From a virus: 64,000 nucleotides of DNA. A model generated the notes under the pieces. The model was not told where the DNA came from, searched no databases, and saw only the letters and a list, made by a program, of their open reading frames with translations. The stretch spans positions 130,557 through 194,556 of IMG/VR virus record IMGVR_UViG_3300025881_000985; one strand, 5' to 3'. Position numbers and translations under genes: made by a program. This document shows, piece after piece, positions 11,675-33,090 of the stretch (the first letter of the stretch is position 1; every line of letters begins with the position of its first letter).

Positions 11675-12449
11675 AAAACTTGATAAGTTTCTTTACAGTA
11701 ACAAAGTACATGCTTCAGCATTTGAAAAAGGCTTGAACGGAGATATCCGTGACTTTAGAGGCCAAACCCTTGACTGGCTTCCAACGGATACCGAAAAGCT
11801 ATACCTAACAAATATTAAAAAGTTTCCTGAGTTTTTTGCAGACAAGGAATGGACACAACCAGGAAATATTACATATCATATCAATGCACACGGGTTTCGT
11901 GGAGAGTTCTATACTGAGCCAGATATAGTAGCACTAGGATGTAGTAACACTATGGGCATTGGGTTACCCGAGGATAAGATATGGTGCTACCAACTTGGTC
12001 AAAAATTAAATATGACTGTAACCAATTTAGGAGTTGGCGGAATTGGTACAGACAGTATATATAATATTGTTAAGTCAATGATATTATCAAAGATAGTAAA
12101 ACCTAAATTTGTTGCAATGCTTGTGCCACCAATTGGAAGACTTGAAATACGTACAAATCATCATGATGTTCAACAAGTGAACACTGCGTCAGATAGTGCT
12201 ACATTAATAGGTAAACATTGGTGGCTTAATGATGAGAATAGCACACTGTTTGATGAAAGAAATATTATGGCAATTTACTTTCTACTAGAAAGTTTAAATA
12301 TTCCAATTATACACTTAAACAGTAATCAACTCCTGCACCGGCAACACCCCAAGGGAGATCTTGCAAGAGACATGATGCATCCTGGTCCTGTATCACACAA
12401 CGGACTATCTCAACTTATGGCAAACCTAGTAGAAGCAAAACTAACTTGA
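11658..12449 (+). CDS. SGNH/GDSL hydrolase-like protein
   Basis: ALGCSNTMG (block I), NLGVGG (block II), DMMHPG (block V). Confidence 0.7.
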   Translation: MHPSTRKLDKFLYSNKVHASAFEKGLNGDIRDFRGQTLDWLPTDTEKLYLTNIKKFPEFFADKEWTQPGNITYHINAHGFRGEFYTEPDIVALGCSNTMGIGLPEDKIWCYQLGQKLNMTVTNLGVGGIGTDSIYNIVKSMILSKIVKPKFVAMLVPPIGRLEIRTNHHDVQQVNTASDSATLIGKHWWLNDENSTLFDERNIMAIYFLLESLNIPIIHLNSNQLLHRQHPKGDLARDMMHPGPVSHNGLSQLMANLVEAKLT

Positions 12450-16173: not shown

Positions 16174-16659
16174 CTTCTTTGCTTTCTTTGTAGCCATATC
16201 CCATTTTAGTTTACTACATCGATCTTTGAATGTAATACCCATTAAATGATCAAACTCATGCAAGTAGCACCTGGCAGTATAACCAGTTAATGTTTCTGTT
16301 TGCAACTCAAGTTTTTCATTATAAAACTCAGCAATAACAGTTTTAGGTCTGGCAATCTTAACAAACACCATTGGAAAACTTAAACAACCTTCATAGTCTA
16401 CTACAACCTCATCATCAGTTGTTTCGTCAATACGTATTGTTGGATTGATACACAATGTACTATTTTCTTTGCTGTCGCCAATAACAAACAAACGGTGATC
16501 AATTCCAACTTGATTAGCACTTAAACCCATGCCTTCATGTTGTACCATCAAGTCTACCATTTCGTTTTTCATTTGCCCAGGATCAAATCCTGGGTTATCA
16601 ATATCCACTGCGGTTACTGCTTTCGCTAACCAAGGATCTGGTGCTAGTATTAATTCCAT
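16162..16659 (-). CDS. def: Peptide deformylase
   Basis: All three motifs: GMGLSANQVG, EGCLS, HEFDHL.G. Start moved to ATG 16659 (TAATG overlap). Confidence 0.93.
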   Translation of the reverse strand: MELILAPDPWLAKAVTAVDIDNPGFDPGQMKNEMVDLMVQHEGMGLSANQVGIDHRLFVIGDSKENSTLCINPTIRIDETTDDEVVVDYEGCLSFPMVFVKIARPKTVIAEFYNEKLELQTETLTGYTARCYLHEFDHLMGITFKDRCSKLKWDMATKKAKKLLK

Positions 16660-17078
16660 TATTGCCTTCCTGCCCAAAAGTCTCTGTTAAAATGTTGCTT
16701 TTCAGCAATCGTTGTTTTAGTTTCAAGTGGTTCAAGATCTTTATCAATATGTATACGTTCAACATCATAACCAATTGTACGTCCGTAGAAAACATTAGTA
16801 ATATTTGGAACTTGAATTATTTCAATCATTTTAGGATAATCAACTTTGAGATCATCTTCGATTGTTTTTTTAATTTGTTCAAATGTGTAAGGATCTTTCT
16901 TGTGTGGTGCTCGCACCATTATAACAACTTGTTGAGCTTTGCTTGTTCTATACATTTCTGGAGTTTCGATTCTACCTTTATAGATCATAGAATCAAGTAT
17001 AGCACGATGTCCTGGATCCCAAGGTTGAAATCTTCCTAAGAATTGAGCAGTGGGTCTACTCCAATCTTCAATACTCAT
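16659..17078 (-). CDS. HIGH-family (cytidylyl/NMN-adenylyltransferase-like) nucleotidyltransferase
   Basis: FLGRFQPWDPGH, DPYTFEQ, VPNITNVFYGR..GY. Confidence 0.7.
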   Translation of the reverse strand: MSIEDWSRPTAQFLGRFQPWDPGHRAILDSMIYKGRIETPEMYRTSKAQQVVIMVRAPHKKDPYTFEQIKKTIEDDLKVDYPKMIEIIQVPNITNVFYGRTIGYDVERIHIDKDLEPLETKTTIAEKQHFNRDFWAGRQ

Positions 17079-17090
17079 TTTATTGTCCTC

Positions 17091-18572
17091 TTAACTGCAA
17101 ACATCTATGCCGTATTGATCTTCAAAACGATCAGCATCAGCTCTAGTGTTTACTATTGGTTCACCTCTGATATTTAAACTGGTGTTTAGTAACATTGGGC
17201 ATCCAGTTAGTATAAACCATTTTTCTAACATCTCTCTAATATGTTTAAACTCTGGCTCTTTACCTACAGTTTGTACTCTGCTTGAATTGTCAACATGACA
17301 TATAGCAGGAAACTTTTTTGGAGATTTACATATTCCAACACTTTGCATATACGGACTATGAACCCAAGCCTTGGGCAAATCAAAATATGCTTGTGCTTGT
17401 TCTTCTAATATCATTGGAGCAAACGGCCTAAACTTTTGTCTACGTTTAATTTCGTTTACTCTATCTTTAATATCATCTCCTCTTGGATCTGCTAGTAAAC
17501 TTCTATTGCCTAATGCTCGTGGTCCAAACTCTGCACGACCACTTGCTACACCTACAATTTGTTTTTCTAATAATAGATCAAGTAATTGGTCCACTGGATA
17601 TTCACCCGGGATATCACAGCCCAAAAACGGACCTTGCCAGTTAAGTTTCTTTTTATAACTCAATGCCGCCGCACCTAAACTGCTACCTGCATCACCTGGG
17701 TTAGGCATAATCCAAATATTATCAAAACTATCAATTTTACTATTAGCGACACAATTGAGAGCAACACCACCCATTAATACCAAGTTGTTGCTGTAAAAAC
17801 TATGCCTTGCTCTATTGCATAAACGAGTTACCAAGTGTTCAGTTATAGCTTGTACACTAGCCGCAAGATCAATATCCAATGCTCCTGGCAAATAATCTTC
17901 GTCAATACCAGCATGACAATTTTGTCTAAATGTAAAGTCTCGTGAGTTTAGAATAAAGTCGTTGTATATTGTATCAAAATGTTTATTCTCACCCCAAGCG
18001 GCCATGCCCATAAAAATATACTCTTCGTCCATTGGCTTTAAACCAACATGTTTTGTCATTGCACTATAGAATAATCCCAAACTATGAGGATAACCTTGCT
18101 TCCATATTTGACGGTATCGTGCAATGCCTTGGTTATCATACATTGCTCGCCATATACTAGCGGTTGTAAATTCGCCAATGGCATCTATTACAACTACTGT
18201 AGCAACATCATATGGTGATGTTTGAAACCCTGCGGCCGCATGTGATAAGTGATGATCATACTTATGAATTTTAGTGTTACACTGAAAAGGAACGCCTTGA
18301 TTCTTTAATACATGCCTTACTGTAATGTTTGACCAATCAATTTTTTGGCCTGCATAACACTGTCTTACTTGTTTCTTAATTGGATCTTCGTAGTATGCAA
18401 TAGTATCAATATCGTCAAAATCAACTTCGCTCAACAGCTCACGACATAAGTCTTTATCATTTTTATTTCTACTATATCTTTCGCTATGACTTGCAAATGA
18501 AATATTTCCTTGTTCGTCTACAACGCTTACTGCCGCATCATGAAATCCAGCTGATATTCCTAATATACTCAT
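17091..18572 (-). CDS. Carbamoyltransferase (NodU/CmcH/TobZ family)
   Basis: FHDAAV, HHLSHA, DAIGE, GGVALNC, PGDAG, EFGPRALGNRSLLADP, FRPFAP, LNTSLN..GEP. Confidence 0.93.
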   Translation of the reverse strand: MSILGISAGFHDAAVSVVDEQGNISFASHSERYSRNKNDKDLCRELLSEVDFDDIDTIAYYEDPIKKQVRQCYAGQKIDWSNITVRHVLKNQGVPFQCNTKIHKYDHHLSHAAAGFQTSPYDVATVVVIDAIGEFTTASIWRAMYDNQGIARYRQIWKQGYPHSLGLFYSAMTKHVGLKPMDEEYIFMGMAAWGENKHFDTIYNDFILNSRDFTFRQNCHAGIDEDYLPGALDIDLAASVQAITEHLVTRLCNRARHSFYSNNLVLMGGVALNCVANSKIDSFDNIWIMPNPGDAGSSLGAAALSYKKKLNWQGPFLGCDIPGEYPVDQLLDLLLEKQIVGVASGRAEFGPRALGNRSLLADPRGDDIKDRVNEIKRRQKFRPFAPMILEEQAQAYFDLPKAWVHSPYMQSVGICKSPKKFPAICHVDNSSRVQTVGKEPEFKHIREMLEKWFILTGCPMLLNTSLNIRGEPIVNTRADADRFEDQYGIDVCS

Positions 18573-19194
18573 CAATAACCTTTGCTATTCTTTTGTGTCC
18601 AAGTTCTAAAGGATGACCTCCAGGACCTTTAACACAATTTCCTTGCCATTCTAGTATGCCGTCTTTAGGCCAACCAACAAAGAATCTTTTATCAATTTCT
18701 CTAAACTGAGCTTCAAGAAGTTGATAGTATTCGTCATAGTAACCTTGTAAACCAGCTACATTATACATTAGATAACGTTGATTACGATTTAGTAAAAATC
18801 CTTGCAATGCAATTATCTGATTAAACTGTTTTCGAAATCCCCAAGCGATATCATAACTATACTTATAATAGTCTGTTATCCAGTCTGGTTCTTTTTGTGT
18901 TCGAGCACGAATTGACATGAACTGCGAAGGTTCTGTATTTGGTAAATCAAGTGCTTCAAAACGACTTTGTTCCGGCCAACTTATTAATACTAAATCAAAT
19001 GTTTCGTTGATTAAAGTTTCAATTGTTGTTCTAAAAACATAATCAGAACTAGCACCGCAAAGTCCTAGATTAACTACTTCGTCAAAGCCCAATAAGTTTT
19101 TCATTAGATATGGGTAGGCATCAACTTCTCTATTAGGAAGTTCATCTCCATATGTAAAACTATCACCAACGGTTAATAATCTACGTTTACTCAT
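18538..19194 (-). CDS. SGNH/GDSL hydrolase-like protein
   Basis: TVGDSFTYG, NLGLCGAS, GHPLELGH. Confidence 0.75.
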   Translation of the reverse strand: MSKRRLLTVGDSFTYGDELPNREVDAYPYLMKNLLGFDEVVNLGLCGASSDYVFRTTIETLINETFDLVLISWPEQSRFEALDLPNTEPSQFMSIRARTQKEPDWITDYYKYSYDIAWGFRKQFNQIIALQGFLLNRNQRYLMYNVAGLQGYYDEYYQLLEAQFREIDKRFFVGWPKDGILEWQGNCVKGPGGHPLELGHKRIAKVIDEYIRNISWIS

Positions 19195-19295
19195 TTATAG
19201 ATAAACGGATCCCGTTTGCGTAATTCTTTAAGTTTTTTGCGATATGCAATCTCTAATTTCACACGGTTAATTAAACTCTTAAACCATTTGATCAT
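19191..19295 (-). CDS. 34-aa basic micro-ORF, not in ORF track
   Basis: MIKWFKSLINRVKLEIAYRKKLKELRKRDPFIYK. AGGAG SD at 19303-19307. ATGA overlap with the next gene. Confidence 0.75.
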   Translation of the reverse strand: MIKWFKSLINRVKLEIAYRKKLKELRKRDPFIYK

Positions 19296-20061
19296 TGAAA
19301 AACTCCTGCATTAGGTTTGCGGCTGATTTATGTGCATCTTCTAAGGGGTGTGTAGTGCCTACCTTGTATTTATTCTCTAGTGCCCACTGGTAAAAACCTC
19401 TAGGGTTCTGAGTTTCACCATTCTTTGTTCCTTCTGGAAACCAAAACCATTTGTTCATATCTATTAGATTGTACAAAGTTTTGATTGACACATCGGCATT
19501 TTCTATTGTATAATTGTATAATATACAGTTGTCAGCACAGGTAAACATGTAGGGAATACTATTAGATTTTAAGTAGTTTTGTAAGTACACTATTTCTTTT
19601 AGTGTGCTATATATTTCCCAGTATTCACTGCTACCAACATGTTTATAGAATGTTTGAGCAAAGCCAGCAACACCTGTCTCGTTTGCTCTTTTAATAGTAT
19701 CTTGTTGAGCCGTTAGAATACCATCATCTTGGGTATGGAACTCTTTTTCAATTGAAGATAAGTCACTTTCAATTGTCCACGAGTTAATTGAATACCAATG
19801 CCCTGTACGTTGTTTGGTATCGTAATTGAAACGAAACTCATAGCGTCCTGGAAATGTCCAACTAACTATAGCAAACTTATCTTTTGTTAATGACTCTAAT
19901 GCATTAATTGTTTGTCTAGCGATTGCTTCGTTGCTATTGCCAGGTGTTGCTACATTTATATAATTGGTATATTGTTGACTAACCAACTTTGTAAAATTAT
20001 TATCAGAGTGTTCTAGTTCACTTCCTGCAACAAAACTATCACCCCCGGCTACTATAATCAT
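19279..20061 (-). CDS. SGNH/GDSL hydrolase-like protein
   Basis: AGGDSFVAG, NVATPGNSN, THPLEDAH. Confidence 0.75.
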   Translation of the reverse strand: MIIVAGGDSFVAGSELEHSDNNFTKLVSQQYTNYINVATPGNSNEAIARQTINALESLTKDKFAIVSWTFPGRYEFRFNYDTKQRTGHWYSINSWTIESDLSSIEKEFHTQDDGILTAQQDTIKRANETGVAGFAQTFYKHVGSSEYWEIYSTLKEIVYLQNYLKSNSIPYMFTCADNCILYNYTIENADVSIKTLYNLIDMNKWFWFPEGTKNGETQNPRGFYQWALENKYKVGTTHPLEDAHKSAANLMQEFFNDQMV

Positions 20062-21112
20062 AACCTGGTTTTAACCTTTCAATTTGTACGTCATAATAAT
20101 CCTTGTCTGTCCAGCAATAATCAAAATCACATGAAGCCTCAAGTGTTTCAATTTTTACAATGTCTAAGTGTTCGCCAATGATCTCCCACACTGTTTCAGG
20201 ATTGTCTGTACCAAAACTACCTACTAGATCAACTTGTCCAACTGAATGATATCCATAGTTGTATTGTGTGTCATTGTGATTAAAACCATTACGCTCTAAC
20301 CAATCTGCATATTCATCCATTCGTTGCTTGTGCCACGGATATTCACCAGCATAGGTAATATCACGTGACCATTCAATGTCAAACTCGCCACTGTAGTAAC
20401 GCAAATGAGTAATCTCTTCACACATTGCGTCTGTTAAATCAGGTGCGCCTTCATCAACGAACACTTCATATAATGTTTTTCCTACTTGAGTCCAGTGTTG
20501 GTAAACAGTACCAAAGGTACGATCATATCTTTCCTTGTTGAATGTCCGCTTATGCTCGTCGGGATAATCAAATCTAGGAGCATTTAAAAATGTTGTGATC
20601 TGAGACGGACGCATCCACTGCGGTGCCTCAATTTGTTTCTTCTGGCTCAGCATTAATGATTCTGCTTCGTGACACAAATTGTTTAACTGTCTAATAGCAA
20701 ACTTAGTTTCGTGATTTGCTTTTTTATACCAGTCACTCAATCCCCATGCACTACCTTGTAGTACTTCAAAATGATTATGCAATCTGTTCATAATATCCTG
20801 ATTTGGGTTCATGCCATCTCTCAATGTTTTTGGTGTAAATATTTCTCTTATTATATACTCCTTGTTAAAAAAATCATTGATAGTATTTTTGACCCACTGT
20901 AACTCTTTACATATGAAGTTAATATCTCTAGCAGTATTAGGAAAACCCAAGAATAAAAAGTTCTTTTCTAAGTAGGAATCATTTATTAATAATCCATTTA
21001 ATGCACCTAGCCAGTTACGTCCCATTATAGTTTGCTCAACGTCAATATGAAAATCAACTGTTTTACTTTTGTTAACTGGATTTCTTAATACTACTTTAAC
21101 TTCTCGTGTCAT
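20039..21112 (-). CDS. Unknown 357-aa protein inside the cluster
   Basis: Long ORF, ATGA-coupled to the upstream radical SAM gene. No motif recognised. Confidence 0.7.
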   Translation of the reverse strand: MTREVKVVLRNPVNKSKTVDFHIDVEQTIMGRNWLGALNGLLINDSYLEKNFLFLGFPNTARDINFICKELQWVKNTINDFFNKEYIIREIFTPKTLRDGMNPNQDIMNRLHNHFEVLQGSAWGLSDWYKKANHETKFAIRQLNNLCHEAESLMLSQKKQIEAPQWMRPSQITTFLNAPRFDYPDEHKRTFNKERYDRTFGTVYQHWTQVGKTLYEVFVDEGAPDLTDAMCEEITHLRYYSGEFDIEWSRDITYAGEYPWHKQRMDEYADWLERNGFNHNDTQYNYGYHSVGQVDLVGSFGTDNPETVWEIIGEHLDIVKIETLEASCDFDYCWTDKDYYDVQIERLKPGYDYSSRG

Positions 21113-22407
21113 ATTTCTAACCACCAATCTAATATATCATGCCGTGAAGATAGAATATCTGTCATCGTCAGATCTTGTGTTCTAATTTGTTCTAATTTTA
21201 ATATACGTGCTTTGCCTTTTTGTAGTCCTGCTTCATACTGATCTGGCCATTGTTCTGCAAATGTTGGTCTATTCTTTAGTTGTACTAGCACATCTTTTAA
21301 CGCACCATCAACTGAAGGAATAAGTTCATCTAACCATTTATCCAACAGGTTACGAGGCAATGCCAATGGCGACATTACAATGTCAGGACTAAAACTAAAG
21401 ATTACTTTAGCAAGTATTCCTACACCTAATCTTTTTGCGAGTTCTTGTATTTTTTGGACTTCAAAGAGTCCTGGTAAGGTAAGAGTGAAGTCAATACGAA
21501 TTTGGCGCGAGTGGTTGCTGACCTCAACTCCTTTATTGAAGTTTTCAAGCCACTGGTCAAAATTGAGACCTGTTCGAATATACTCTCCAATTCGTCCCGT
21601 GCCATCGAGGCTTGCACATATTTGCCAATCACGTAGCCTAGCCAAAATATCAGTATAAAGATTAGTGCCAGAATAACTAATCCTAGATAAGTTAGTGTTA
21701 TATCTTGCATAAACATTTGGTCCATCTCCTAGCTCTATAATTCTCTTCATATACCTCCAATGCTGTTCATACATTAAAGGTTCGCCACCTACCCAGTAGA
21801 CTTCTTCTACGCGGTGACTTTCAACTGCTTCAGCAAACTCCTGTTCTATCTGAGTTGACTGAAATTTTTCTATTTGTTTTTTGAGATTAGGTCGCATCCA
21901 GTTGTTCTTAGGATCTTCCCAATTTATCATATTATGCTTACGTTGCTCGGCTTCCCAACTTGAACTGAGCATATCACCACACATACGACATTTGAAGTTG
22001 CATAGGTTTGAAAACCTATAATCCCAACTAACTGGCTTTAAACGGGTCGTACCATCAGGATCGGTGTGATCCCATATACTATCATATTTATGTCCAAATA
22101 GGTTATTAAAATAACTTCTGTAAACATCTGTGTTTAATAACTTGTTAGTACAAACTTCACATTCACTAAGTTCTTCACCAGACATCATTCTACGCCTAAC
22201 ACTTTTCATGTGTTCGCTGTTCCAGTGTTCGTCTAGTGTGGTAGGTTTATATTCACCTGTTCCTGAGTCTGTATCAATATACTGCTCAAAGTTCTGTGCT
22301 GGTTCTCTACTAGCACAACAAAGTCTGCGTTCTGTTTGCGGACTTAGGTAGGTATGTGTCCACGGAGCCATACACAAATTTTCAGGTTTTTTGTCTGGTT
22401 TTATCAT
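21109..22407 (-). CDS. Radical SAM protein with N-terminal SPASM/twitch-like domain (type A)
   Basis: CNFKCRMC, GGEP. N-terminal CMAPW...LCC...CEVC. Confidence 0.9.
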   Translation of the reverse strand: MIKPDKKPENLCMAPWTHTYLSPQTERRLCCASREPAQNFEQYIDTDSGTGEYKPTTLDEHWNSEHMKSVRRRMMSGEELSECEVCTNKLLNTDVYRSYFNNLFGHKYDSIWDHTDPDGTTRLKPVSWDYRFSNLCNFKCRMCGDMLSSSWEAEQRKHNMINWEDPKNNWMRPNLKKQIEKFQSTQIEQEFAEAVESHRVEEVYWVGGEPLMYEQHWRYMKRIIELGDGPNVYARYNTNLSRISYSGTNLYTDILARLRDWQICASLDGTGRIGEYIRTGLNFDQWLENFNKGVEVSNHSRQIRIDFTLTLPGLFEVQKIQELAKRLGVGILAKVIFSFSPDIVMSPLALPRNLLDKWLDELIPSVDGALKDVLVQLKNRPTFAEQWPDQYEAGLQKGKARILKLEQIRTQDLTMTDILSSRHDILDWWLEI

Positions 22408-22408
22408 A

Positions 22409-22918
22409 TTAAAAATTTACATATAAAGATTTTCGAATAACATTGTTAGGAACTTTACCTTTCATGCCGTGTTGTATTGTGTGCGAATTTAATAACATTA
22501 GTCCAGTATTTACTTCATAGTCAACTTCGTACTTGATATCATTTTCATACCAGTAAGTACCCATTGATTCACTGTTACTTTCTTCTCCTAAGTACAACAT
22601 AATAATATTACAAACACTATTAGGATCATCAGTATGCATTGCGTTTTCATAGCCAGCATGATCAAACCATATTTCAACACCACGCACCTTTTGCTTGTCA
22701 ATATCAAGGCTAGAAAATCTACCTGCTATTTCATTGCGTACAATACTATCACGATCAATATCTAACCACCACAACTCTCTGTAGCCTCCAAGATGCCATG
22801 TTTCAGTAATAGGGTCAAATTGCGTTGTATGATTAAACAACTTATTTTTAACACCATTGGGGATATTGTGTTTTAACTTGTATCCGTTTGTGGATATTTG
22901 TTGTACCTCACGTATCAC
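22409..22918 (-). CDS. 2OG-Fe(II) oxygenase-like protein
   Basis: HTD...HG facial triad, GT motif, distal RKS. Confidence 0.65.
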   Translation of the reverse strand: MIREVQQISTNGYKLKHNIPNGVKNKLFNHTTQFDPITETWHLGGYRELWWLDIDRDSIVRNEIAGRFSSLDIDKQKVRGVEIWFDHAGYENAMHTDDPNSVCNIIMLYLGEESNSESMGTYWYENDIKYEVDYEVNTGLMLLNSHTIQHGMKGKVPNNVIRKSLYVNF

Positions 22919-24131
22919 TGTAACCCATTGCCTTTGCTATTTGTGTATGTGTTTCTAAAAAGTTTTCTTTACGATATGTATCTGTTTGTTTCATTAATCT
23001 AACAAAGTCTTTACCATTACTGCTAGGTCCATTGTCAATAAACTTTATTAGTTTATCAATTTCATTTTTATCGTGTGGATGAAATTGATCTTGTTTTAAA
23101 CGATTGGTTACTATTTGTTTTGCTTCTATTGTCATTTCACCAATGTTTTGGTGGCGCGGATCATGTAACATATTAAAGTGATGATAATCAAAGTCCTGTG
23201 TACGCATCCAGTCACATAAATCTTTCAAGTAGTAGACATTCTGAATATTTACAGTTAAACAAATCTGTAACTTAATATTGTTATTCTGATCACGCAAGTC
23301 TCTAAAACGTTTTATATTTTCGCATACTTCGTCCCAGCGAGCTCCAAAACGTTCGTACTCAAATCGTTTGCCTACGTTATCAATACTAAATGCAATCTCA
23401 ACATACTTAAACTCTTTCCATAAATGTACAAACTCTTCTGGATATTGTGTGCCGTTGGTATTGTAATGTATTTCAATATCTTTTGCAAAGCCGCCGTCAA
23501 CTGCTTGTTGTAGCAATTGAAAGTGTTCTTTGATCATAAAAGGTTCACCACCTGTAAACTCAAAGTATTTTATGTTAGGCAGTAAGTCAATCATGTTCTC
23601 CCAAAATACTTCAGACTCACGAGGCCACTTGCCATCTTTAAGCCACTTGTATGCAATATGATCCTTGGCATTTCTATTTTTGTATTTGCGTATATAATCA
23701 ATTTCTTCTCTTGCCCATTTACTGCTTGACCAACTTCCACATATACGACATTTAAGATTACAAATGTTTCCAAGTTTTAGATCAATAAACCATAAACTGT
23801 CAGGATTGGTGTCAGAAAAATCTATCAACGGGCGTTCATGTTTGAAACGCACATCTGTGTTCATGCGTTTGCTTGTGCGTCCTGCATCTTCTTCATCCCA
23901 ACAGCGACTACATGTTTTAGGTTTTTCTCCACGCAAAAACTGTTCACGTAAATCAACCATGTATTCGCTTTTATATATTTCTTCAAGTGTATTTTCTCGT
24001 AGTGCATACTTTGTACCATCTGGTTTTGTAATTTCGTCCATTGCTAAACAACAAGGTCGACTGGTACCCATTGGTGTTGTTTCCATACTAACCCAAGGTA
24101 ACATACATATTGTCTTGGAATTATTATCCAC
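22908..24131 (-). CDS. Radical SAM protein with N-terminal SPASM/twitch-like domain (type A)
   Basis: CNLKCRIC, GGEP. N-terminal CMLPW...PCC...CSRC. Confidence 0.9.
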   Translation of the reverse strand: MDNNSKTICMLPWVSMETTPMGTSRPCCLAMDEITKPDGTKYALRENTLEEIYKSEYMVDLREQFLRGEKPKTCSRCWDEEDAGRTSKRMNTDVRFKHERPLIDFSDTNPDSLWFIDLKLGNICNLKCRICGSWSSSKWAREEIDYIRKYKNRNAKDHIAYKWLKDGKWPRESEVFWENMIDLLPNIKYFEFTGGEPFMIKEHFQLLQQAVDGGFAKDIEIHYNTNGTQYPEEFVHLWKEFKYVEIAFSIDNVGKRFEYERFGARWDEVCENIKRFRDLRDQNNNIKLQICLTVNIQNVYYLKDLCDWMRTQDFDYHHFNMLHDPRHQNIGEMTIEAKQIVTNRLKQDQFHPHDKNEIDKLIKFIDNGPSSNGKDFVRLMKQTDTYRKENFLETHTQIAKAMGYSDT

Positions 24132-25449
24132 GTGCCGACTCCAACTCCGGAAATGTTTTCCAAAAATCTTCGTTGCGTATGCGATCTAACTTTGTAATTT
24201 CTTCTTCAAACCTTGGCCATTCTTTTGATCCATCGTTGCTCATCATAAAGTTAATAGCACTTTCAAATCCTGTTGTTGCTCTACGTAACTTATCTTGTGG
24301 ATCTAACCATTCAATGTGTTTGCGATATGCAGGTTCAATAACTTCTTTTTTAAACTTCTCTGGAAAAATATCAATACGATACCATTCAGGACTTTGACAA
24401 ATATTAACATTAAAATCCTGTGGTTGAATAAACCCTTTTTCAACCCAGTCTTTGTGAAAGTCTAGTACATGTAAAACGTTTTGACTAGTGACTGTAGCAC
24501 TAACATAAAAGTCAACATGTGGCACTTCAGCCATCATACGTACTCTGTTTTCTTCAGTCTGTTTCCAATCTGCACCTTTGCGTATTAGCTCTGCTTGTGG
24601 ACCCATGCCATCAAGACTAGCACCAACATTTACTGTTTTAAACTGTTTCCAATAATCAAATACATGCTTTTTCTTGTAACGCATTTCACTAAAGTTTGTA
24701 TTGTATACCAAACGCACATCAGTCTTGCCTAGTTCAATTAAACGCTCAAGCAAGTAATAATGCTCCTTCATAATCAAAGGTTCACCACCTGCAAAATATA
24801 CTTGTTCTAAATACGGAATATGTTCTTCCATTTGATTCAGCATTCCGTCTTCATCGCCAGTTGTGTACTCTACTCTGGCCATGTCTCTTTTAAGCACATC
24901 AGGTACTCTTCCGTACAGTTTTACATGATCGTTGAACCAGTTACTGCTAAAAATAGGACCACAAGAACGGCATTTAAAGTTACATAGGTTACTGAAGCGT
25001 ATATCCCAATAACGCAACTTAAACTCAGGATGTTCGCCATCTTCTGTTGTTTGATTTACTTCTTCGATCAAATGTCCGTAGTTTCTATTAGCATCATTTC
25101 GCATACTAAAGAAACCGTTTTGTTCTTGTTCATAGCATTTAGTACATTCTTTACATGGCTTGTCTTCAAGCATGTTTTTACGCATTGTTTTATACGCATC
25201 TTGATTCCATACTTCACGCATTGTGTCTTTGCGTAAGTCTCCAATTGGATGCCAGTAATCACCTAAACAACAAGGATACACTCTACCATCTGGAAAGGCA
25301 TGCATGTGAACCCAAGGCAACATACAAAAGTTATCCTCTTTGACAAGTCTGCTAAGTTGCTTGTCTGTTAAATCTTCAGGCTTGACAAAGTGCGGAGTTC
25401 TTTCGTTATAATCATATTTTTCATAAAAGTCTTTTTTACTTGAGTCCAT
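24124..25449 (-). CDS. Radical SAM protein with N-terminal SPASM/twitch-like domain (type A)
   Basis: CNFKCRSC, GGEP. N-terminal CMLPW...PCC...CKECTKC. Confidence 0.9.
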   Translation of the reverse strand: MDSSKKDFYEKYDYNERTPHFVKPEDLTDKQLSRLVKEDNFCMLPWVHMHAFPDGRVYPCCLGDYWHPIGDLRKDTMREVWNQDAYKTMRKNMLEDKPCKECTKCYEQEQNGFFSMRNDANRNYGHLIEEVNQTTEDGEHPEFKLRYWDIRFSNLCNFKCRSCGPIFSSNWFNDHVKLYGRVPDVLKRDMARVEYTTGDEDGMLNQMEEHIPYLEQVYFAGGEPLIMKEHYYLLERLIELGKTDVRLVYNTNFSEMRYKKKHVFDYWKQFKTVNVGASLDGMGPQAELIRKGADWKQTEENRVRMMAEVPHVDFYVSATVTSQNVLHVLDFHKDWVEKGFIQPQDFNVNICQSPEWYRIDIFPEKFKKEVIEPAYRKHIEWLDPQDKLRRATTGFESAINFMMSNDGSKEWPRFEEEITKLDRIRNEDFWKTFPELESARG

Positions 25450-26791
25450 TGTACCACTCCGCTAAGGTTGGAAACGTAGCGGTAAAGTCTTTACCTCTGC
25501 GTTGGTCGTATTGTGAATAAAATTGTTTAAAATCGTTGTGAAGTTTAGGCATTTCAAATGTTTCTCTATGTGGAGTTTTAACAACATCTAAGTAATCAAT
25601 TAAACGCTGTACATGATTAATTTCGTGTTCATGTAACATTGCATGGTTACGAAAATTAGATAACCAATCTTGTAATCTTTGCTTGTGATGTTCCCTAATC
25701 TCGTCAGGTAACACAAGAGGTGATTGGAAACTTGGAAAGCGTAAAATATTGAGTGTAAAGTTTGGAAAGTCTCTGCCAAACTTTGATTTCCATTCTAGCA
25801 TCCACGTTAAGAACTCAGGTAAACTTTCTAAGCATAATGCATTAATGGTATTCATTACATGCAATCCTCGTAGTTTACCACTTCGTATCAGTAGCTCTAC
25901 GTTTGCTGTCCATTGTTTCCATTCTAATCCATCACGTATATATTCGGCTTGTAGACCCATACTCTCGTTGCTGGTATATAAGTCTAATTCAAGATGTTCT
26001 GCCGCATCAAGCAATTTCTCAACTTTTTCGCTTTCAAATCCCAAGTTGCTGTTAATAGCAATTCGAGTTTTTGACTTACCTTTGTTTTCTTTAAACCAAT
26101 CAAACAGGTCCCATGTGTGACCGCTCATCAACGGCTCTCCGCCAGTGATACGTAATTCTTGTAATGTTTCGTGCAAGTCACTTTCCCACCATTTGAAAAA
26201 TGCTTCAACGTATGGGTTGGTTTCGGAATACTTGTACAAACTTGCTTCGTTGTGTTCATGTGTAAAGTGATTACGACCATCGCTTTCTAGACCGGCATAT
26301 GCTCCATTCTTTTTAATATCTTTAACCCATGTAGTACTGAACGCTGGGTTACAATAACTACATGCAAACTGACAAGTTCTATCAAAAGCAATTTCAAGTG
26401 TACGCAAGTTAACATCATCTTCCGGAGGTGTATTGTATGCATCTTGTAATAATTTGTCACTGTAGATTACACTTTTGTAAACTCTATCACTGATATTATC
26501 TCGTTTAATATCTTCAATCTTCCAGCAGTATTCGCAACCTTTGGGCCTTACACCTGTGAGCATATCAGCACGATCTTGTTTCTTTTGTGAACTGTTGTGC
26601 AATGCTCTTGGATTAAATTTAACTTCATCAACATCAACTTTGTGTGCTGGTGGATGATGACAACTTGTAGTCATACCACTGCCTAACCATATAGTAGCAT
26701 TATACCATTTGGCTCCACAAAAACTTGCACTCTTTGGATCAAGAATTCTTTTTCTAAATTCTAAATCTGTTTCATTAACTAACTTAGGCAA
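25436..26791 (-). CDS. Radical SAM protein with N-terminal Cys/His domain (type B)
   Basis: CQFACSYC, GGEP. N-terminal CGAKW...SCHHPP...CEYCW. Confidence 0.9.
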   Translation of the reverse strand: MPKLVNETDLEFRKRILDPKSASFCGAKWYNATIWLGSGMTTSCHHPPAHKVDVDEVKFNPRALHNSSQKKQDRADMLTGVRPKGCEYCWKIEDIKRDNISDRVYKSVIYSDKLLQDAYNTPPEDDVNLRTLEIAFDRTCQFACSYCNPAFSTTWVKDIKKNGAYAGLESDGRNHFTHEHNEASLYKYSETNPYVEAFFKWWESDLHETLQELRITGGEPLMSGHTWDLFDWFKENKGKSKTRIAINSNLGFESEKVEKLLDAAEHLELDLYTSNESMGLQAEYIRDGLEWKQWTANVELLIRSGKLRGLHVMNTINALCLESLPEFLTWMLEWKSKFGRDFPNFTLNILRFPSFQSPLVLPDEIREHHKQRLQDWLSNFRNHAMLHEHEINHVQRLIDYLDVVKTPHRETFEMPKLHNDFKQFYSQYDQRRGKDFTATFPTLAEWYNGLK

Positions 26792-27875
26792 AGTGTTCCT
26801 CCATTTCGGATATATAGTTTACTATCTTTGTGCCACGATGTCTATCTCTAATAGTAATCATATCTAAAAATTCTTTCCAGTTTTCTTCATTGGAGTTATC
26901 CAATGTATTGATAATTCCTTCTAAACCATTTTGTGCTTCGTAGTCAACAGCACGAAGTCTATCTTGTGCAAGTTGAGCTAATTCTTTTGGCAAACATACA
27001 GGTGCCAGATAATGAGGCTTTGTTAATATATCAAACTGTACAAAAAGCTCTTCCTGTTCAGCCCACTCTAATAATCTATCAATATATAATACATTTAAAT
27101 TTTGTACGACTGTGTTTACAAAAATATTAGCATCGGGTATTTGACGCATCAACTCTATATTATTAGTTATAACATTCCATTTACTTGGATATCTTATGTA
27201 ATGATTAAGTTCTGCATATCCGTCAATACTTAAACACATCTTAATGTCGTGTGCTGACAATACATCAACCCAACTTTGATCAAATTTAGTTCCATTTGTT
27301 GCAATCATTATTTCTTTACGTTGTGTCAATGATGAAAGAATATCGCGAACCCAAGGCAACATAAACGGTTCGCCTCCTCTTAGAATAAAACTATCACAGT
27401 GTTCCATTATTTCAAGTATCTTGTAATTGTCTTTTTCATTCCAATCGTATTTCTTCTGATCCCATACCTTGTCAAACAGTTTGTTTTCTTCAACTAAAAA
27501 TTGACTACTAGATTGCGGATTACACATCAAGCATTTCAAGTTACATAAATTTGATAACTGTATTTCCCAATCCAGTGGCTGTTCTGTTTGTTCTGTTATG
27601 TCACTCCAACGTTCATTGCTGTACTGTCGAAAACTTTTTGATCCTTGCTCCTCTTGTTTATAACAACGAACACATTCATCACTGTGTTCATTGTTCTTTA
27701 TACGCTTTCTTAGATCATTGAGATAATCGCTATTCCACCACTCGTCAACAGAGTGTGTTTTCATATTAAAATCTGTTGTAACAAAACTACGACAACAAGG
27801 CATAAAACGTCCTTGGGTGTCTACTAGACTATGCATAAACGGACGCACACAAAATTTATCGTTATCTTTGAGCAT
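26784..27875 (-). CDS. Radical SAM protein with N-terminal SPASM/twitch-like domain (type A)
   Basis: CNLKCLMC, GGEP. N-terminal CVRPF...PCC...CVRC. Confidence 0.9.
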   Translation of the reverse strand: MLKDNDKFCVRPFMHSLVDTQGRFMPCCRSFVTTDFNMKTHSVDEWWNSDYLNDLRKRIKNNEHSDECVRCYKQEEQGSKSFRQYSNERWSDITEQTEQPLDWEIQLSNLCNLKCLMCNPQSSSQFLVEENKLFDKVWDQKKYDWNEKDNYKILEIMEHCDSFILRGGEPFMLPWVRDILSSLTQRKEIMIATNGTKFDQSWVDVLSAHDIKMCLSIDGYAELNHYIRYPSKWNVITNNIELMRQIPDANIFVNTVVQNLNVLYIDRLLEWAEQEELFVQFDILTKPHYLAPVCLPKELAQLAQDRLRAVDYEAQNGLEGIINTLDNSNEENWKEFLDMITIRDRHRGTKIVNYISEMEEHFA

Positions 27876-29268
27876 AATATCTACACTGTTTCCAAAACTC
27901 TTCCATCTCAGGAAATGTTGCTAAAAAGTTTGTGTCTCTGCGTTTATCGTGTTCAGTAAAGAACCTATAAAAGTCTGCACGATTGTTTTGCAAATATTGT
28001 TCAGGTAATTCATCTCCTTTACGCATCCACGCTATATCTCTACGCATACGCTGTACTTCATAATCTTTAAATCCGTGGAATGGATCGTCTTTGGTTTCTA
28101 AGTTTCGTTCCATCCAATTTGCAACTTCTTCTAATTTTTCAGCATAAGGCCATGGCAATATCTGTAGACTTTGCCAAGTTGGTTGACGCAACAATGGTGT
28201 ATCAAACCATATACGCTGATAAGTTGAACTAAACGCTTTACGTAAATCAAGTATCCATTCTAACTGCTTTTTAATTCCACTCACACTCAAGTTATTCATT
28301 GTAATAATAAATGTTAAACTATTACGCTCGGGCACCTCTCCTAAATACCTATATACATTATGATGCATACGAGTCCATTGAAGTCCGTGCCTAATATATT
28401 CTGCTTGTTCTGGCACACCAGTGTCAAGGCTAACATATTGCATAAAATGTTCTATTTGTGTTTTACATAACTTTTTTACGTAACCAATATACTTTTCAAA
28501 CAGTTTATCTTCAACACTGAAGTTGCTTGTTACATTTAGATGTAACTCTGGATTTGGTAATGCTAGTACATAATCAAACACACGATATGTATTGTTATCC
28601 ATCAACGGTTCACCACCAGTCATACGGAAATGTTTTAGGTGTGGGTATAACGAGGGCCACCATTCCCAAAACGCATCAACATATGGATTTTCTTCTCTGT
28701 GTGGAATTGGTCTATTACGCCCAACAAAATGTTCAGGTGCATTATGCGGAACACTAGTAGGATATGCTCCTACTTTTTTAGTTTCCTTCATCCATGTGCT
28801 ACTAAATTGTGGACTGCAATACGAACAGGCCAAGTTACATGCATTATTAAAATTAACTTCAACGTAACTAGGTTTCCAGTCTTCGTCACCAGTACTGTTT
28901 TTAATTGCTTCGTAATCACTGGCCGCCCAAGGTTCTCCACTGCGATAATGTCTATCGCTTAGGTTACCTGAATCCTCAATGTTCCAGCAATACTGACACT
29001 CTGGAGGACGTTCACCTTTGAGCATCATTTTACGCTGTTCTTTTTTGTGTTCTGTATTGTGCAATGCATTAGGATCGAGTTTTACTTTCTCGCGATCCAT
29101 TTGATGCAACGGAGGATGATAGCAACTATTATTCAGCCCTGTTGGTAAATGAAAACTTACTTGTTTCCATTTTGCTAAACACAAGCCGTGGCCAAGATTA
29201 TCTTTCATAAACTCGGCACTAGCCATAAACTTACTTTTATTACCTACGGATTCGTCACCCTTGTTCAT
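27862..29268 (-). CDS. Radical SAM protein with N-terminal Cys/His domain (type B)
   Basis: CNLACSYC, GGEP. N-terminal CLAKW...SCYHPP...CQYCW. Confidence 0.9.
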   Translation of the reverse strand: MNKGDESVGNKSKFMASAEFMKDNLGHGLCLAKWKQVSFHLPTGLNNSCYHPPLHQMDREKVKLDPNALHNTEHKKEQRKMMLKGERPPECQYCWNIEDSGNLSDRHYRSGEPWAASDYEAIKNSTGDEDWKPSYVEVNFNNACNLACSYCSPQFSSTWMKETKKVGAYPTSVPHNAPEHFVGRNRPIPHREENPYVDAFWEWWPSLYPHLKHFRMTGGEPLMDNNTYRVFDYVLALPNPELHLNVTSNFSVEDKLFEKYIGYVKKLCKTQIEHFMQYVSLDTGVPEQAEYIRHGLQWTRMHHNVYRYLGEVPERNSLTFIITMNNLSVSGIKKQLEWILDLRKAFSSTYQRIWFDTPLLRQPTWQSLQILPWPYAEKLEEVANWMERNLETKDDPFHGFKDYEVQRMRRDIAWMRKGDELPEQYLQNNRADFYRFFTEHDKRRDTNFLATFPEMEEFWKQCRYYAQR

Positions 29269-29571
29269 TTACCATCCCATCATAAATCGAGTTTCTTCAG
29301 GTACCATTTCTATTGTAAACGGTGGATCAAATGTTGTGTTAACAATAACACTCAACACTTCTGGTGCATACCCTGCTTGTTGTATATCACTAACAATTTG
29401 ATCTGCAAACGGACAGAATGCACTTGTTAATGTGTGCGTGATTGTAACTTCGTATTCGCTTTGATCTATCGCAATATCGTATATCAATCCTAAATCATAT
29501 ACATTACAACTTATTTCTGGATCAAAAACTTTACGTAAGTTTTCAATAACAATATCTTTATCTATTGCCAT
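29269..29571 (-). CDS. sufT: DUF59/SufT (MIP18-like) Fe-S cluster assembly protein
   Basis: LRKVFDPEI..NVYDLGLIYDI, TLTSAFCP, FDPPFT.EM. Confidence 0.88.
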   Translation of the reverse strand: MAIDKDIVIENLRKVFDPEISCNVYDLGLIYDIAIDQSEYEVTITHTLTSAFCPFADQIVSDIQQAGYAPEVLSVIVNTTFDPPFTIEMVPEETRFMMGW

Positions 29572-29572
29572 T

Positions 29573-30505
29573 TTACCAACCCTCTATTCTGCGAATAACA
29601 TCAATTTCTTTTGTCATTAGCTCTAAGTTTTTATGACCAGTTGCATAGTGATATTTAAAGAAAGCACTTTGTTCTGCATCAAGTTCAACAATATTTAATG
29701 CTAATCTATTATTAAGTAATTCTGTAATAGTTTCCATGTCATTATGATTTCCTATTGCAGTAACTTCGAGGTATTCTTCATGTAAGTATGCAAGTTTATC
29801 AAAGTCTTGTACTTGAGTAAAATCCCAATCCGACAACATTGTTTTGTATGTGCCGTACCGAGCTCCGTTGATTGCTTCTTCTCCGTGTTCAACATCACGA
29901 CCAATTGTTTGCCAAATCTGCAAGTGATCTAGATTACGTTTCTTTGCGTTATCATCGAACTCTTGCAGACTTGGCTTGCGTCCACGATCTAAGCACATTT
30001 TAACACCTTCGCGAAAACCAGCCCTCCAGGCATGATATTGACTTCCGTTAGGATATGTAGTGCTATAGCAGTTGTGCATAGGGTAGTAAGTTTCCTCGAA
30101 ACAAAACTCTACAGCCGTTTCGTGACTCCCGTCACTTGCTTCGTGGGTTCGCATATTGTTAACAAAGCCTTTGCTCCAGACACTCATGCCACCATTACCA
30201 TACATTAATCCATTAATGTGGTTACGTGCTTTCCATCTAAAAGCAGAGTCTTCGCCAGGCGTTTCAATTTGTAAATTAAAAAACTCTGGATCTGGAATAT
30301 TATCGCCATCAATTAAAACAAAAAAGTTAGTGTCACTTGCATCAGCACACGCCTTATGAGCCGCATCTGATCCTTTAACGTTATCTACTCGTTTTGCCCA
30401 TGGAACAATATTCTGTATTTGTAGCCAGAATTCTTCTTTCTGAGGTTCGTCATAACTTAAATAGATGCAGTCTAAATCTGCAACATCAGTGATTTTCAAA
30501 TCCAT
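29573..30505 (-). CDS. GT-A-like glycosyltransferase
   Basis: IYLSYDEP, VKGSDAAHKACA, FVLIDGDN (DxD), YGNGG, AWRAGFREGVKM. Confidence 0.6.
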   Translation of the reverse strand: MDLKITDVADLDCIYLSYDEPQKEEFWLQIQNIVPWAKRVDNVKGSDAAHKACADASDTNFFVLIDGDNIPDPEFFNLQIETPGEDSAFRWKARNHINGLMYGNGGMSVWSKGFVNNMRTHEASDGSHETAVEFCFEETYYPMHNCYSTTYPNGSQYHAWRAGFREGVKMCLDRGRKPSLQEFDDNAKKRNLDHLQIWQTIGRDVEHGEEAINGARYGTYKTMLSDWDFTQVQDFDKLAYLHEEYLEVTAIGNHNDMETITELLNNRLALNIVELDAEQSAFFKYHYATGHKNLELMTKEIDVIRRIEGW

Positions 30506-30773: not shown

Positions 30774-30898
30774 TATTTTAAAATCCATAGCAGAGTTAAT
30801 CCCACTGTAAGGAATGCAAGTAAATGCCATATCTTAAGTTTAGGATACACAACGTGGCCTTTGTTTTCGTCTTGTAAATCATCCCATATGTTTTTCAT
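30773..30898 (-). CDS. 41-aa single-TM micro-ORF, not in ORF track
   Basis: MKNIWDDLQDENKGHVVYPKLKIWHLLAFLTVGLTLLWILK. AGGAG at 30912-30916. Stop overlaps the next ATG. Confidence 0.55.
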   Translation of the reverse strand: MKNIWDDLQDENKGHVVYPKLKIWHLLAFLTVGLTLLWILK

Positions 30899-31733
30899 AG
30901 TCTTGTATTAACTCCTTAACTTTAAATTTTTTATCATGATAATGTACTGGTTGAAGTTGTTGTACGTTATTAATACGCAATTCATTTAATTCATTTTCAA
31001 CCAGCACACTATCAAATATTTGTGTACTCTCAGCCCAACCTTGTATACCCGGTTTCATATGTGCAAATGTAAAGAAATCTAAGCTAGGAACATAAGGCTC
31101 AATTTCTAACATTGCTGATACAATACTGTAAACAACATCAGTTGTAGGATTTTCATCACGTATATTAGTAAGTGCAAAATCACGCACTTCAGTCCAGTTA
31201 CGATATACGTCACGAGCTAGGGTAAAAAACTCTGTTGCTTCGCGACTGTACCGGAAATACATCATACCATTATATACATCAGGTAAATTATTATCACTGA
31301 ATAACTTACGATAGCGATTGCCTGTGTATAAACGTTGTTGCAGATCTACTACTCCATGACTTAAAACTACATTTCTTAATCTAAGTGCTGGCCACCAATG
31401 GGAGATATTCCTTGGAAACAGCAAATCAGATTCAAGTTTGATGGTCTCTTTAAACGGCGTTAACCAGAATGATTGCCATTCGTTGGCCAACTTCCATTCA
31501 TCATTTTCAGCTTCATCAATTTCTAGGGTAATAACGTAGTCGAACGCACGGCGTTGAGTGTCTGTTATTTGAGACTTAGTAAACTCGTCAACTATGACAG
31601 CATATAGACTGTCGGGCTGAGTTACCTTTATATTTAGCGCCTGAAGGTAGGCCAGCTCTAAATAATCCACATCATTTGTGTTCTGTGCAATAGTTAGAAA
31701 TCCTCTTTGAGCACAATGTGGTTGTTTACGCAT
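30879..31733 (-). CDS. GT8-like glycosyltransferase (DxD altered to ESD)
   Basis: Paralog of 31726..32472: GFLTIA.N...DY, TPFKETIKLESDLL, HYHDK. Confidence 0.55.
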   Translation of the reverse strand: MRKQPHCAQRGFLTIAQNTNDVDYLELAYLQALNIKVTQPDSLYAVIVDEFTKSQITDTQRRAFDYVITLEIDEAENDEWKLANEWQSFWLTPFKETIKLESDLLFPRNISHWWPALRLRNVVLSHGVVDLQQRLYTGNRYRKLFSDNNLPDVYNGMMYFRYSREATEFFTLARDVYRNWTEVRDFALTNIRDENPTTDVVYSIVSAMLEIEPYVPSLDFFTFAHMKPGIQGWAESTQIFDSVLVENELNELRINNVQQLQPVHYHDKKFKVKELIQDYEKHMG

Positions 31734-32472
31734 TTAATACCTCTTCAAACTCTATACTTTGTAGATATTGTTTGTCGTGGAAATGCAAAGATATGTATGG
31801 TAAAACATATGCTCCGTCGTCTGTAATAACTTTGATCCAATCGTCTATAATAATTTGGTTAACTTTGCCTTGAATAGTTTGTATACTCCACGGTATTTTA
31901 GTAGAAGTATCTTCAACATAACCATTTACTAACCTATCTGCAATAGTAAAAGCGGCATCATTGCGAAAATTACTTGTCTGTAATTTATACAATGCACGAT
32001 AATAAGGATAGTTGTTTTGTATCATTTTAGCAAACTCAAATAAATCCTTTGACTTCTGTGTCTTATTAAATACAATTACTGTAGCCCATAACATAGGACC
32101 AATCGATAACTGTCCAAGAGTATCAACCAAGTTTTCTTTGTTAACATAAGTGTTCTTGTCTACTATAGCATAATCTTGTACAGTGTCAAGTACTTTGAGT
32201 AAATTACTATCAAATATTAGATAATCGCCGTCAACTAATATAGTTTGATCATATGGAGATAAGTCGTATGCTTCACACCTTCCGGTATTTTGCCATTCGA
32301 CTATTTCATTGTCCACTCTTCTTTTATTACTTGACTTTGTACCACTTACAATAGTTGTTGGCAATCCAAGATACTTTTTAATTAGTTTAGCATTAATTTT
32401 TGCAATCTTTATATAATCAATTTCTTTTGTATTAGTTGCAAATATTAATACACCTTTAGACTTTTCTGACAC
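31726..32472 (-). CDS. GT8-like glycosyltransferase
   Basis: GVLIFA.N...DY, SPYDQTILVDGDYL (DxD), LWATVIVF, HFHDK. Confidence 0.6.
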   Translation of the reverse strand: MSEKSKGVLIFATNTKEIDYIKIAKINAKLIKKYLGLPTTIVSGTKSSNKRRVDNEIVEWQNTGRCEAYDLSPYDQTILVDGDYLIFDSNLLKVLDTVQDYAIVDKNTYVNKENLVDTLGQLSIGPMLWATVIVFNKTQKSKDLFEFAKMIQNNYPYYRALYKLQTSNFRNDAAFTIADRLVNGYVEDTSTKIPWSIQTIQGKVNQIIIDDWIKVITDDGAYVLPYISLHFHDKQYLQSIEFEEVLNA

Positions 32473-32762: not shown

Positions 32763-33017
32763 TTATTTTCCTTGAACTTTTCTTACATTCTCTATAAAGG
32801 TAATTGCATCCTCTACGGTATGAAAATTTTCAGCATCGCTATCATCTATTTCAATCTGAAATTCTTCTTCAAATGCCATAGCCAACTCAATGGTATCCAG
32901 GCTATCGGCCCCCAGATCATCAACAAAGTCTGAATTTAAATATATATTTTGTTCTTCAACACCTAGGTGTTCTTCTAAGATATTGATTATTCTAGGTAAA
33001 GTGTCTTCGTAAACCAT
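32763..33017 (-). CDS. acpP: Acyl carrier protein
   Basis: FVDDLGADSLDTIELAMAFEEEF.IEI.D with phosphopantetheine Ser. Acidic, 84 aa, AGGAG SD. Confidence 0.95.
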   Translation of the reverse strand: MVYEDTLPRIINILEEHLGVEEQNIYLNSDFVDDLGADSLDTIELAMAFEEEFQIEIDDSDAENFHTVEDAITFIENVRKVQGK

Positions 33018-33045: not shown

Positions 33046-33074
33046 AGTATATAACAAAAAACCCACTCTGTCAA
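33046..33074 (-). promoter_or_regulatory. sigma70 promoter for the acpP-led operon
   Basis: TTGACA (33074-33069)-17 bp-TATACT (33051-33046). Confidence 0.75.
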
Positions 33075-33090
33075 GTGGGTTTTTCTTTTT
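33056..33090. terminator. Intrinsic terminator ending the structural operon, overlapping the acpP promoter
   Basis: AAAAA-ACCCACT-ctgtca-AGTGGGT-TTTT stem with A/T tracts on both sides. Confidence 0.8.

Follow-up and report, generated by a model that had tools for sequence, protein, structure and literature searches.

A conserved array of N-twitch radical SAM genes in a marine jumbo phage and its possible part in glycoconjugate tailoring

The DNA analysed here (the window, 64 kb) is the final part of the 194.6-kb IMG/VR virus record IMGVR_UViG_3300025881_000985, and carries on its minus strand an array of six genes for radical S-adenosylmethionine (SAM) enzymes, named R1 to R6. The enzymes share an auxiliary cysteine domain placed ahead of the catalytic core. 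Because the array is fixed between glycosyltransferases and sugar-finishing enzymes, with enzymes for nucleoside diphosphate (NDP)-amino-sugars closing the module, we read it as the non-redundant radical tailoring of a phage-made glycoconjugate within a conserved operon, and give this reading an even chance. Family membership, intact motifs, conserved orthogroups, constant synteny and sugar-enzyme neighbours are observed; the substrate class, chemistry and target of the radical SAM enzymes are what we infer.

Six N-twitch radical SAM genes of two subtypes

The six genes lie within a single densely packed minus-strand gene run (16.1-33.0 kb). Adjacent genes abut or overlap by 8-14 nt, and the array has a sole interruption, an open reading frame (ORF) of 169 amino acids (aa). 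Scores are those against the NCBIfam model NF033640.

27862-29268, minus strand: R6, N-twitch radical SAM, type B, 468 aa (318.8 bits)
26784-27875, minus strand: R5, N-twitch radical SAM, type A, 363 aa, accessory copy (280.8 bits)
25436-26791, minus strand: R4, N-twitch radical SAM, type B, 451 aa (307.0 bits)
24124-25449, minus strand: R3, N-twitch radical SAM, type A, 441 aa (406.4 bits)
22908-24131, minus strand: R2, N-twitch radical SAM, type A, 407 aa (351.0 bits)
22409-22918, minus strand: 169-aa ORF (X169) with an HxD...H motif, between R2 and R1, accessory
21109-22407, minus strand: R1, N-twitch radical SAM, type A, 432 aa (299.3 bits)

All six proteins scored 281-406 bits against NF033640 (N_Twi_rSAM, 'twitch domain-containing radical SAM protein'; cut-off 170), with near full-length matches that started at profile position 1-4 and ended at 388-398 of 398. 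A seventh copy, encoded elsewhere in the record, was likewise above the cut-off, so that all seven radical SAM genes of the whole record (7/7) are members. The original prediction had described the auxiliary module as lying N-terminal to the core, an inversion of the canonical order. The position was borne out: Pfam SPASM was matched at residues ~9-105 of R1, R2, R3 and R5 (R3: 42-105), ahead of the Radical_SAM match. The novelty was not, since all six pass the cut-off of a family that is already curated; the N-twitch family and its architecture are known. R4 and R6 are too diverged for the Pfam SPASM model, and scored 28.0 and 20.7 bits against PF04055, below the 29.5-bit cut-off that R1, R2, R3 and R5 exceeded.

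An alignment of the seven paralogs (R1-R6 and the seventh copy) showed four invariant N-terminal columns, C12, C31, C83 and C86 in R1 numbering. The core columns CxxxCxxC (C136/C140/C143) and GGEP (207-210) were also invariant, confirming both motifs in the six minus-strand genes as first noticed. The spacing C-x17/18-C-x41-51-CxxC was common to 7/7 copies; in this cysteine count test for a twitch domain, the pattern is that of a half-SPASM. The six enzymes have 4-6 Cys before the core, fewer than the seven of the SPASM motif. A second (twitch) Fe-S cluster is predicted, as four invariant Cys would suffice for its full ligation.

The division into two subtypes also proved real. Type A (R1, R2, R3, R5) reads C-x2-P(W/F)...CC...CxxC and type B (R4, R6) reads C-x-AKW...SC(H/Y)HPP...CxYCW. 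It had been suggested that a His may replace a Cys ligand in type B. In the alignment, however, the Cys that is invariant in type B lines up with the later Cys of the 'CC' pair in type A, at which position some bacterial type A members have a single Cys. Type B thus retains all four aligned Cys and the proposed His ligand is unnecessary; bacterial type B sequences read SCYLPP, without the His. The conserved ligand set would accordingly be four Cys in both subtypes.

Among characterized enzymes, similarity was restricted to the core. A profile search of the Protein Data Bank (PDB) matched only the cores of viperin, BlsE, SkfB and MoaA (E 1e-8 to 1e-4; 1e-7 to 1e-4 for BlsE and MoaA), and BtrN was not among the matches at E ≤ 0.1. 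SPASM peptide-maturase models (anSME, PqqE, SkfB type) gave 15-40 bits only, against cut-offs of 300-650, and the viperin family NF038283 gave 15-40 bits against a cut-off of 180. The phage enzymes resemble BtrN, MoaA and BlsE in having one putative site for an auxiliary cluster, patterned C...C...CxxC, but the twitch domain is C-terminal in those enzymes and N-terminal here. Their substrates are small molecules of the sugar and nucleotide type, which is compatible with the phage gene context. The phage copies have the layout of NF033640, an N-terminal Cys domain and then the CxxxCxxC core; NF033640 is a 'subfamily' model without assigned function, within which the phage members form an ancient set of five to nine paralogs in a fixed operon.

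The seventh copy is an orphan of type A (346 aa; G000:C1:39073-40113, plus strand, outside the window). Directly downstream lies a probable ClpP protease gene, judged from its translation (G000:C1:40110-40703).

Conservation of the array across viral loci

More than 580 confirmed relatives emerged when viral contigs were scanned, and the best 80 loci were examined; locus counts below refer to these. Each contained 1-9 N-twitch genes, mostly 4-6. The order R6-R4-R3-R2-R1, by best match, recurred in about 80 loci, and a distant group had the order R6-R4-R1-R2.... R4 orthologs were found in 76/80 loci and R1 orthologs in nearly all 80, at 43-86% identity with one at 33%. R5 had a close ortholog in locus L038 alone (98% identity), which marks it as an accessory copy; X169 had a 92% identical copy in the same locus and weak matches in three more. 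Marine metagenomes of several studies held near-identical DNA. R3 had 7,711 metagenome relatives at E ≤ 1e-5, the best 120 listed being all at least 71% identical, and metagenome contigs bearing R3 orthologs reached 364 kb. Megablast with the array as query matched none of 50,697 phage records.

The paralogs were only 20-30% identical to one another, compared with 45-90% identity between each and its own orthologs in other phages. Subtype was almost always retained among orthologs. Of those from other viral loci that reached 40% identity, type B was found for R6 in 58/61 and for R4 in 72/76, and type A for R1 in 77/79, R2 in 54/56 and R3 in 60/60. In a FastTree tree of 122 sequences, R1, R3 and R6 each formed one clade with support of 99-100 (100 for R1 and R6). 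The R4 clade had support of 99, barring one extra copy, and R2 formed a single clade but for two intruding sequences and one copy that fell outside it. Type B as a whole was one clade (support 99), comprising R4, R6, several viral extras and two Halobacteriovorax proteins. Most of the sampled bacterial members clustered with R3, the copy nearest them, in a sample that had been picked by type A motifs and is biased accordingly.

The long-standing divergence of the copies, their unbroken motifs, their separation into orthogroups and their constant order argue for distinct roles. Judged by sequence conservation, the six are compatible with non-redundant roles, in keeping with the original proposal that divergent paralogs with intact motifs had been kept for separate functions. 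The enzymes may also act sequentially.

Four contigs binned into metagenome-assembled genomes (MAGs) of Porticoccaceae, Legionellales and Haliscomenobacter (L083-L086) carried a phage-type five- or six-gene array with 46-54% identity to R3, and three of the four (3/4) had the small peptide gene described below. These look like phage contigs binned into bacterial MAGs.

The surrounding module and a cultured relative

Across the 80 loci the genes recurred in the order (fibre-like X307)-X101-X248-X284-X310-R6-R4-R3-R2-R1, continuing after R1 as X362-(SGNH/DUF6071)-carbamoyltransferase-X360 (opposite strand)-X883-aminotransferase-SDR, where SDR denotes a short-chain dehydrogenase/reductase. In the window, the genes around the array were as follows.

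33114-34037, minus strand: X307, Gly/Ser/Thr/Asn-rich fibre-like protein of 307 aa; no family match
32763-33017, minus strand: acyl carrier protein (ACP), accessory, first gene past the promoter-like site; NF002148 95.9 bits (cut-off 71)
31726-32472, minus strand: X248, probable second GT-A-type protein, DGD motif (invariant D81 and D83); 31/80 loci
30879-31733, minus strand: X284, GT8-like (glycogenin-like) glycosyltransferase, from a profile match to glycogenin-1; 37/80 loci
29573-30505, minus strand: X310, GT-A fold glycosyltransferase-like protein, DGD motif; AlphaFold2 (AF2) model with predicted local distance difference test (pLDDT) score 85; 53/80 loci
29269-29571, minus strand: DUF59/SufT/PaaD-like Fe-S assembly protein, abutting the start of R6; PF01883 43.3 bits
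20039-21127, minus strand: X362, conserved protein after R1; 49/80 loci
19279-20061, minus strand: SGNH-like protein, N-terminal GDS motif found by eye; 18/80 loci
19191-19295, minus strand: 34-aa micro-ORF ending YRKKLKELRKRDPFIYK; 58 distinct DNA versions
18538-19194, minus strand: DUF6071/GDSL-like protein; PF19547 29 bits
17091-18575, minus strand: NodU/TobZ-type carbamoyltransferase, complete; PF02543 138 bits, PF16861 169 bits; 55/80 loci
16162-16677, minus strand: peptide deformylase, end of the minus-strand run; not conserved in related loci
15091-16173, plus strand: X360, conserved protein on the opposite strand; 36/80 loci
12441-15092, minus strand: X883, 883 aa; 37/80 loci
9565-11674, plus strand: NDP-sugar 4,6-dehydratase-like SDR and PseC/LegC-like DegT aminotransferase; PHROG 540 and PHROG 3139

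The sugar-related assignments differ in how they were reached. For X310, the best Foldseek matches were the PBCV-1 capsid glycosyltransferase A64R (2p6w, E 2e-4) and SunS, with GlyE also among the structural matches (E 2-4e-4, TM-score 0.3-0.4). X284 matched glycogenin-1 over its N-terminal ~100 residues (E 9e-5). X248, which had no match in a sequence search of the PDB, would be a GT-A-type glycosyltransferase on account of its invariant Asp residues. X883 has at its C-terminus a domain (residues 646-853) paralogous to X310 but without the DGD motif (hhalign probability 99.5%, E 1e-22); the N-terminal part shows repeated FDFSWHP-type motifs without a family match. The SDR, which is dTDP-glucose 4,6-dehydratase-like, and the aminotransferase scored below NCBIfam cut-offs and occurred at the module end in 23-26/80 loci. 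The TIGR02945 and SufT matches of the DUF59 protein were also below cut-offs, and a gene of this kind was present in 5 related loci at varying positions.

X362, X310, X248, X883, X360 and X169 had no or negligible matches in Pfam, PHROG and NCBIfam, and PDB profile searches of X310, X362, X248, X883 and X360 produced no usable match. The AF2 model of X362 (pLDDT 89) showed a cyclophilin-like barrel with a helical insert, at a Z of ~8 that lies in the range unrelated models reach; Foldseek returned nothing for it. The SGNH-like protein had no Pfam, PHROG or NCBIfam family match. Inclusion of the ACP in the core module was considered and rejected, because the gene is absent from related loci that extend to its position. 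In 11 related loci the fibre-like gene was conserved immediately ahead of the module; its product is a candidate glycosylation acceptor.

The micro-ORF had been flagged earlier as a 34-codon ORF, and was upheld as a constrained coding sequence since variability at the third codon position (0.30) exceeded that at the first (0.13) and second (0.08). Its last six residues, DPFIYK, are nearly invariant. It occurred in 50/55 loci with the carbamoyltransferase and in 0/22 loci without it, although those 22 retain 3-8 radical SAM genes, and in 18 loci its stop lay no more than 3 nt from the carbamoyltransferase start. The gene arrangement suggests that it is often translationally coupled to the carbamoyltransferase, its apparent partner. 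None was found in bona fide bacterial loci (0/75).

A minimal module with one radical SAM gene was found in a cultured phage, Ralstonia phage RsoM2USA (343.8 kb). The order there is DUF6071, gp202, DUF6071, a 36-aa ORF, DUF6071 and the gp199 carbamoyltransferase, in which gp202 is an R4 ortholog of type B with 54% identity. The 36-aa ORF is unannotated, lies between gp201 and gp200 (L168:11018-11128, plus strand; MG752970.1 ~125891-126001) and ends in RKQDPFIYK. All genes of this module are annotated as hypothetical and the paper on that phage is silent on them. More distant copies, of type A only, occurred in Vibrio phages K566, K567 and QD01; the K566 annotations carry no functional names.

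A hairpin with an 11-bp stem and A/T-run flanks was seen at 33046-33084, between the fibre-like gene and the ACP gene, overlapping a minus-strand TTGACA-17-TATACT site. This is likely the operon boundary and start; the promoter and terminator scan gave counts close to those for shuffled sequence. Contigs from two marine metatranscriptome libraries matched the operon in all bins with 0-1 mismatches. The DNA library of the same study had a depth similar to that of the RNA contigs, so carry-over is possible and the contigs are weak evidence of operon transcription.

Proposed function and alternatives

In the reading we favour, the dehydratase-like SDR and the DegT aminotransferase would supply an amino-deoxy NDP-sugar, and three or four GT-A/GT8-type transferases would put sugars on an acceptor. 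Each radical SAM enzyme would then cleave SAM at its CxxxCxxC cluster and take a specific C-H hydrogen, the four-Cys twitch cluster accepting or donating an electron. Oxidation, epimerisation, dehydration and C-C or C-methyl chemistry are possible outcomes, as in BtrN-type enzymes. The product would be finished by the SGNH/DUF6071 proteins and the carbamoyltransferase, and the SufT-like protein may help to load the ~12 clusters. What is modified might be a fibre-type protein on the virion or else the envelope of the host.

Several findings are consistent with this scheme besides the gene order. The best core matches in the PDB (viperin, BlsE and MoaA), weak as they are, act on nucleotides or nucleoside sugars. 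Some bacterial members of the family adjoin GT2 or DegT genes. The SufT-like gene abuts R6, and an A-type Fe-S carrier gene is present in the same record (G000:C1:59240-59542, outside the window). Radical SAM gene sets of comparable make-up in marine phages, noted in the two papers cited below, also agree with the scheme.

Other findings weigh against it. The glycosyltransferase assignments have weak scores (E ~1e-4, TM-score 0.3-0.4), and no sugar acceptor was identified for the module. We found no paper on NF033640 or on an enzyme with an N-terminal twitch/SPASM domain, and no assayed member; a profile search of all PDB sequences revealed no solved NF033640 structure. The RsoM2USA module differs in having a single radical SAM gene and no adjacent glycosyltransferase, with DNA ligase, RlaP and helicase genes around it. 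Among bacteria, two Paenibacillus genomes have clusters of ACP, ketosynthase (KS), ketoreductase (KR), dehydratase (DH), GT2 and phosphopantetheinyl transferase (PPTase) genes around the N-twitch gene, a Cellvibrionaceae genome places it with small ORFs, a C39-ABC exporter and GT2, and the Flavobacteriales neighbours are housekeeping-like.

These bacterial members were recovered with an alignment of three paralogs, after a scan of genome contigs with R3 only had matched nothing. Hosts included Bdellovibrionota, Bacteroidota, Paenibacillus, Polyangiaceae, Pseudomonadota and others. Bdellovibrionota had 2-5 N-twitch copies of both types together with DegT and PhoX. GT2 and DegT genes recurred beside bacterial members, though not in every locus. 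Since these contexts differ, the family appears functionally diverse, and its context elsewhere cannot fix the phage substrate. Two Oligoflexia/Bdellovibrionota MAG contigs (L163/L164) had five N-twitch genes of both subtypes on alternating strands beside PhoX and DegT, and a PhoX alkaline phosphatase neighbour recurred in 5 bacterial loci.

A different possibility is peptide or protein maturation, in which the radical SAM enzymes, glycosyltransferases and carbamoyltransferase modify the 34-aa DPFIYK peptide, as a scaffold or in the manner of a ribosomally synthesised and post-translationally modified peptide (RiPP), or else a fibre-type protein such as X307. SPASM/twitch enzymes are typically peptide maturases, and the carbamoyltransferase is related to HypF, which transfers a carbamoyl group to the C-terminus of a protein. 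The micro-ORF is constrained at the protein level and lies inside the operon, as it does beside the R4 ortholog in RsoM2USA; the fold matches of X310 include the peptide or protein glycosyltransferases SunS, PBCV-1 A64R and GlyE; X284 resembles glycogenin, which glucosylates a Tyr; and the genes next to the Cellvibrionaceae member include small ORFs and a C39-ABC exporter. However, the micro-ORF tracks the carbamoyltransferase and not the array, it is missing from the bacterial loci, and the searches revealed neither a RiPP recognition element nor a second SPASM cluster in any of the six. We consider this explanation unlikely, but a serious one. A combination, in which the array, glycosyltransferases, carbamoyltransferase and DPFIYK peptide make a new product class, a peptide-anchored glycoconjugate tailored by radical chemistry, seems to us a long shot. 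If true, the N-twitch family would supply several distinct, previously unseen radical reactions.

The module might instead hypermodify the bases of phage DNA or RNA: the carbamoyltransferase would play the part known from 5-carbamoyloxymethylcytosine formation, and hydroxymethyl bases would be glycosylated by the glycosyltransferases. Thymidine hypermodification pathways include radical SAM enzymes, thyA and the carbamoyltransferase gene are 7.5 kb apart, and the RsoM2USA module has the DNA-related neighbours named above. A phage TobZ-like carbamoyltransferase carbamoylates 5-hydroxymethylcytosine (PMC8670742). Yet the sole thymidylate-synthase homolog of the 194-kb record passes equivalog cut-offs and adjoins a dihydrofolate reductase gene, so ordinary dTMP synthesis fits. 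Hydroxymethylase, 5-hydroxymethyluracil (5-HMU) kinase and DNA glycosyltransferase genes did not turn up, with no search aimed at them, and the module stands consistently behind tail-fibre genes and with NDP-sugar enzymes. This makes a nucleic acid substrate improbable to a high degree. ACP-linked acyl or lipid chemistry, for example remodelling of host envelope lipids or glycolipids to block superinfection, would account for the ACP gene at the operon head, for the two Paenibacillus clusters and for a weak match of the seven-paralog profile to tetraether lipid synthase. But the ACP is missing in all related loci reaching its position, family scans found no ketosynthase or PPTase in the window, and the conserved neighbours are sugar enzymes; we rate such chemistry as very improbable indeed. 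That the six genes are redundant or decaying duplicates sharing one activity is barely credible. They do all fall in one family model, but the gulf between paralog and ortholog identity, the intact catalytic motifs and the gene order fixed across loci speak against it.

Whichever substrate applies, NF033640 is a large enzyme family with no reaction known, of which hundreds of viral contigs retain a fixed set of five to nine diverged members, and the chemistry here would add new radical SAM reactions. Solving it would show what abundant aquatic jumbo phages build beside their tail fibres, a product that probably bears on host recognition or virion protection. The minimal module of RsoM2USA offers a bench-accessible route to the function.

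The source virus is an uncultured marine jumbo myovirus. Baseplate, tail-fibre and 4413-aa structural genes are encoded within the window, and an 878-aa virion protein was closest, at 22% identity, to those of Agrobacterium phage Atu_ph07 and RaK2-like jumbo phages. Because of this affinity a pelagimyophage label was dropped, and the moraphage paper (PMC12619734), which concerns another lineage, was set aside. The completeness of the record is estimated at 55%, so absence of a gene from it is weak evidence. Comparable gene sets have been mentioned in passing, without analysis: radical SAM genes are numerous in T4-like marine viral genomes, where paaD and A-type carrier genes accompany them (Nishimura 2017, PMC5332604), and marine myophages have radical SAM cassettes with GT8 genes beside tail fibres (Zaragoza-Solas 2020, PMC7029224). 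The likeness to these cassettes is one of description, and they are T4-like, whereas the structural protein of the present phage is nearest the RaK2/Atu_ph07 type.

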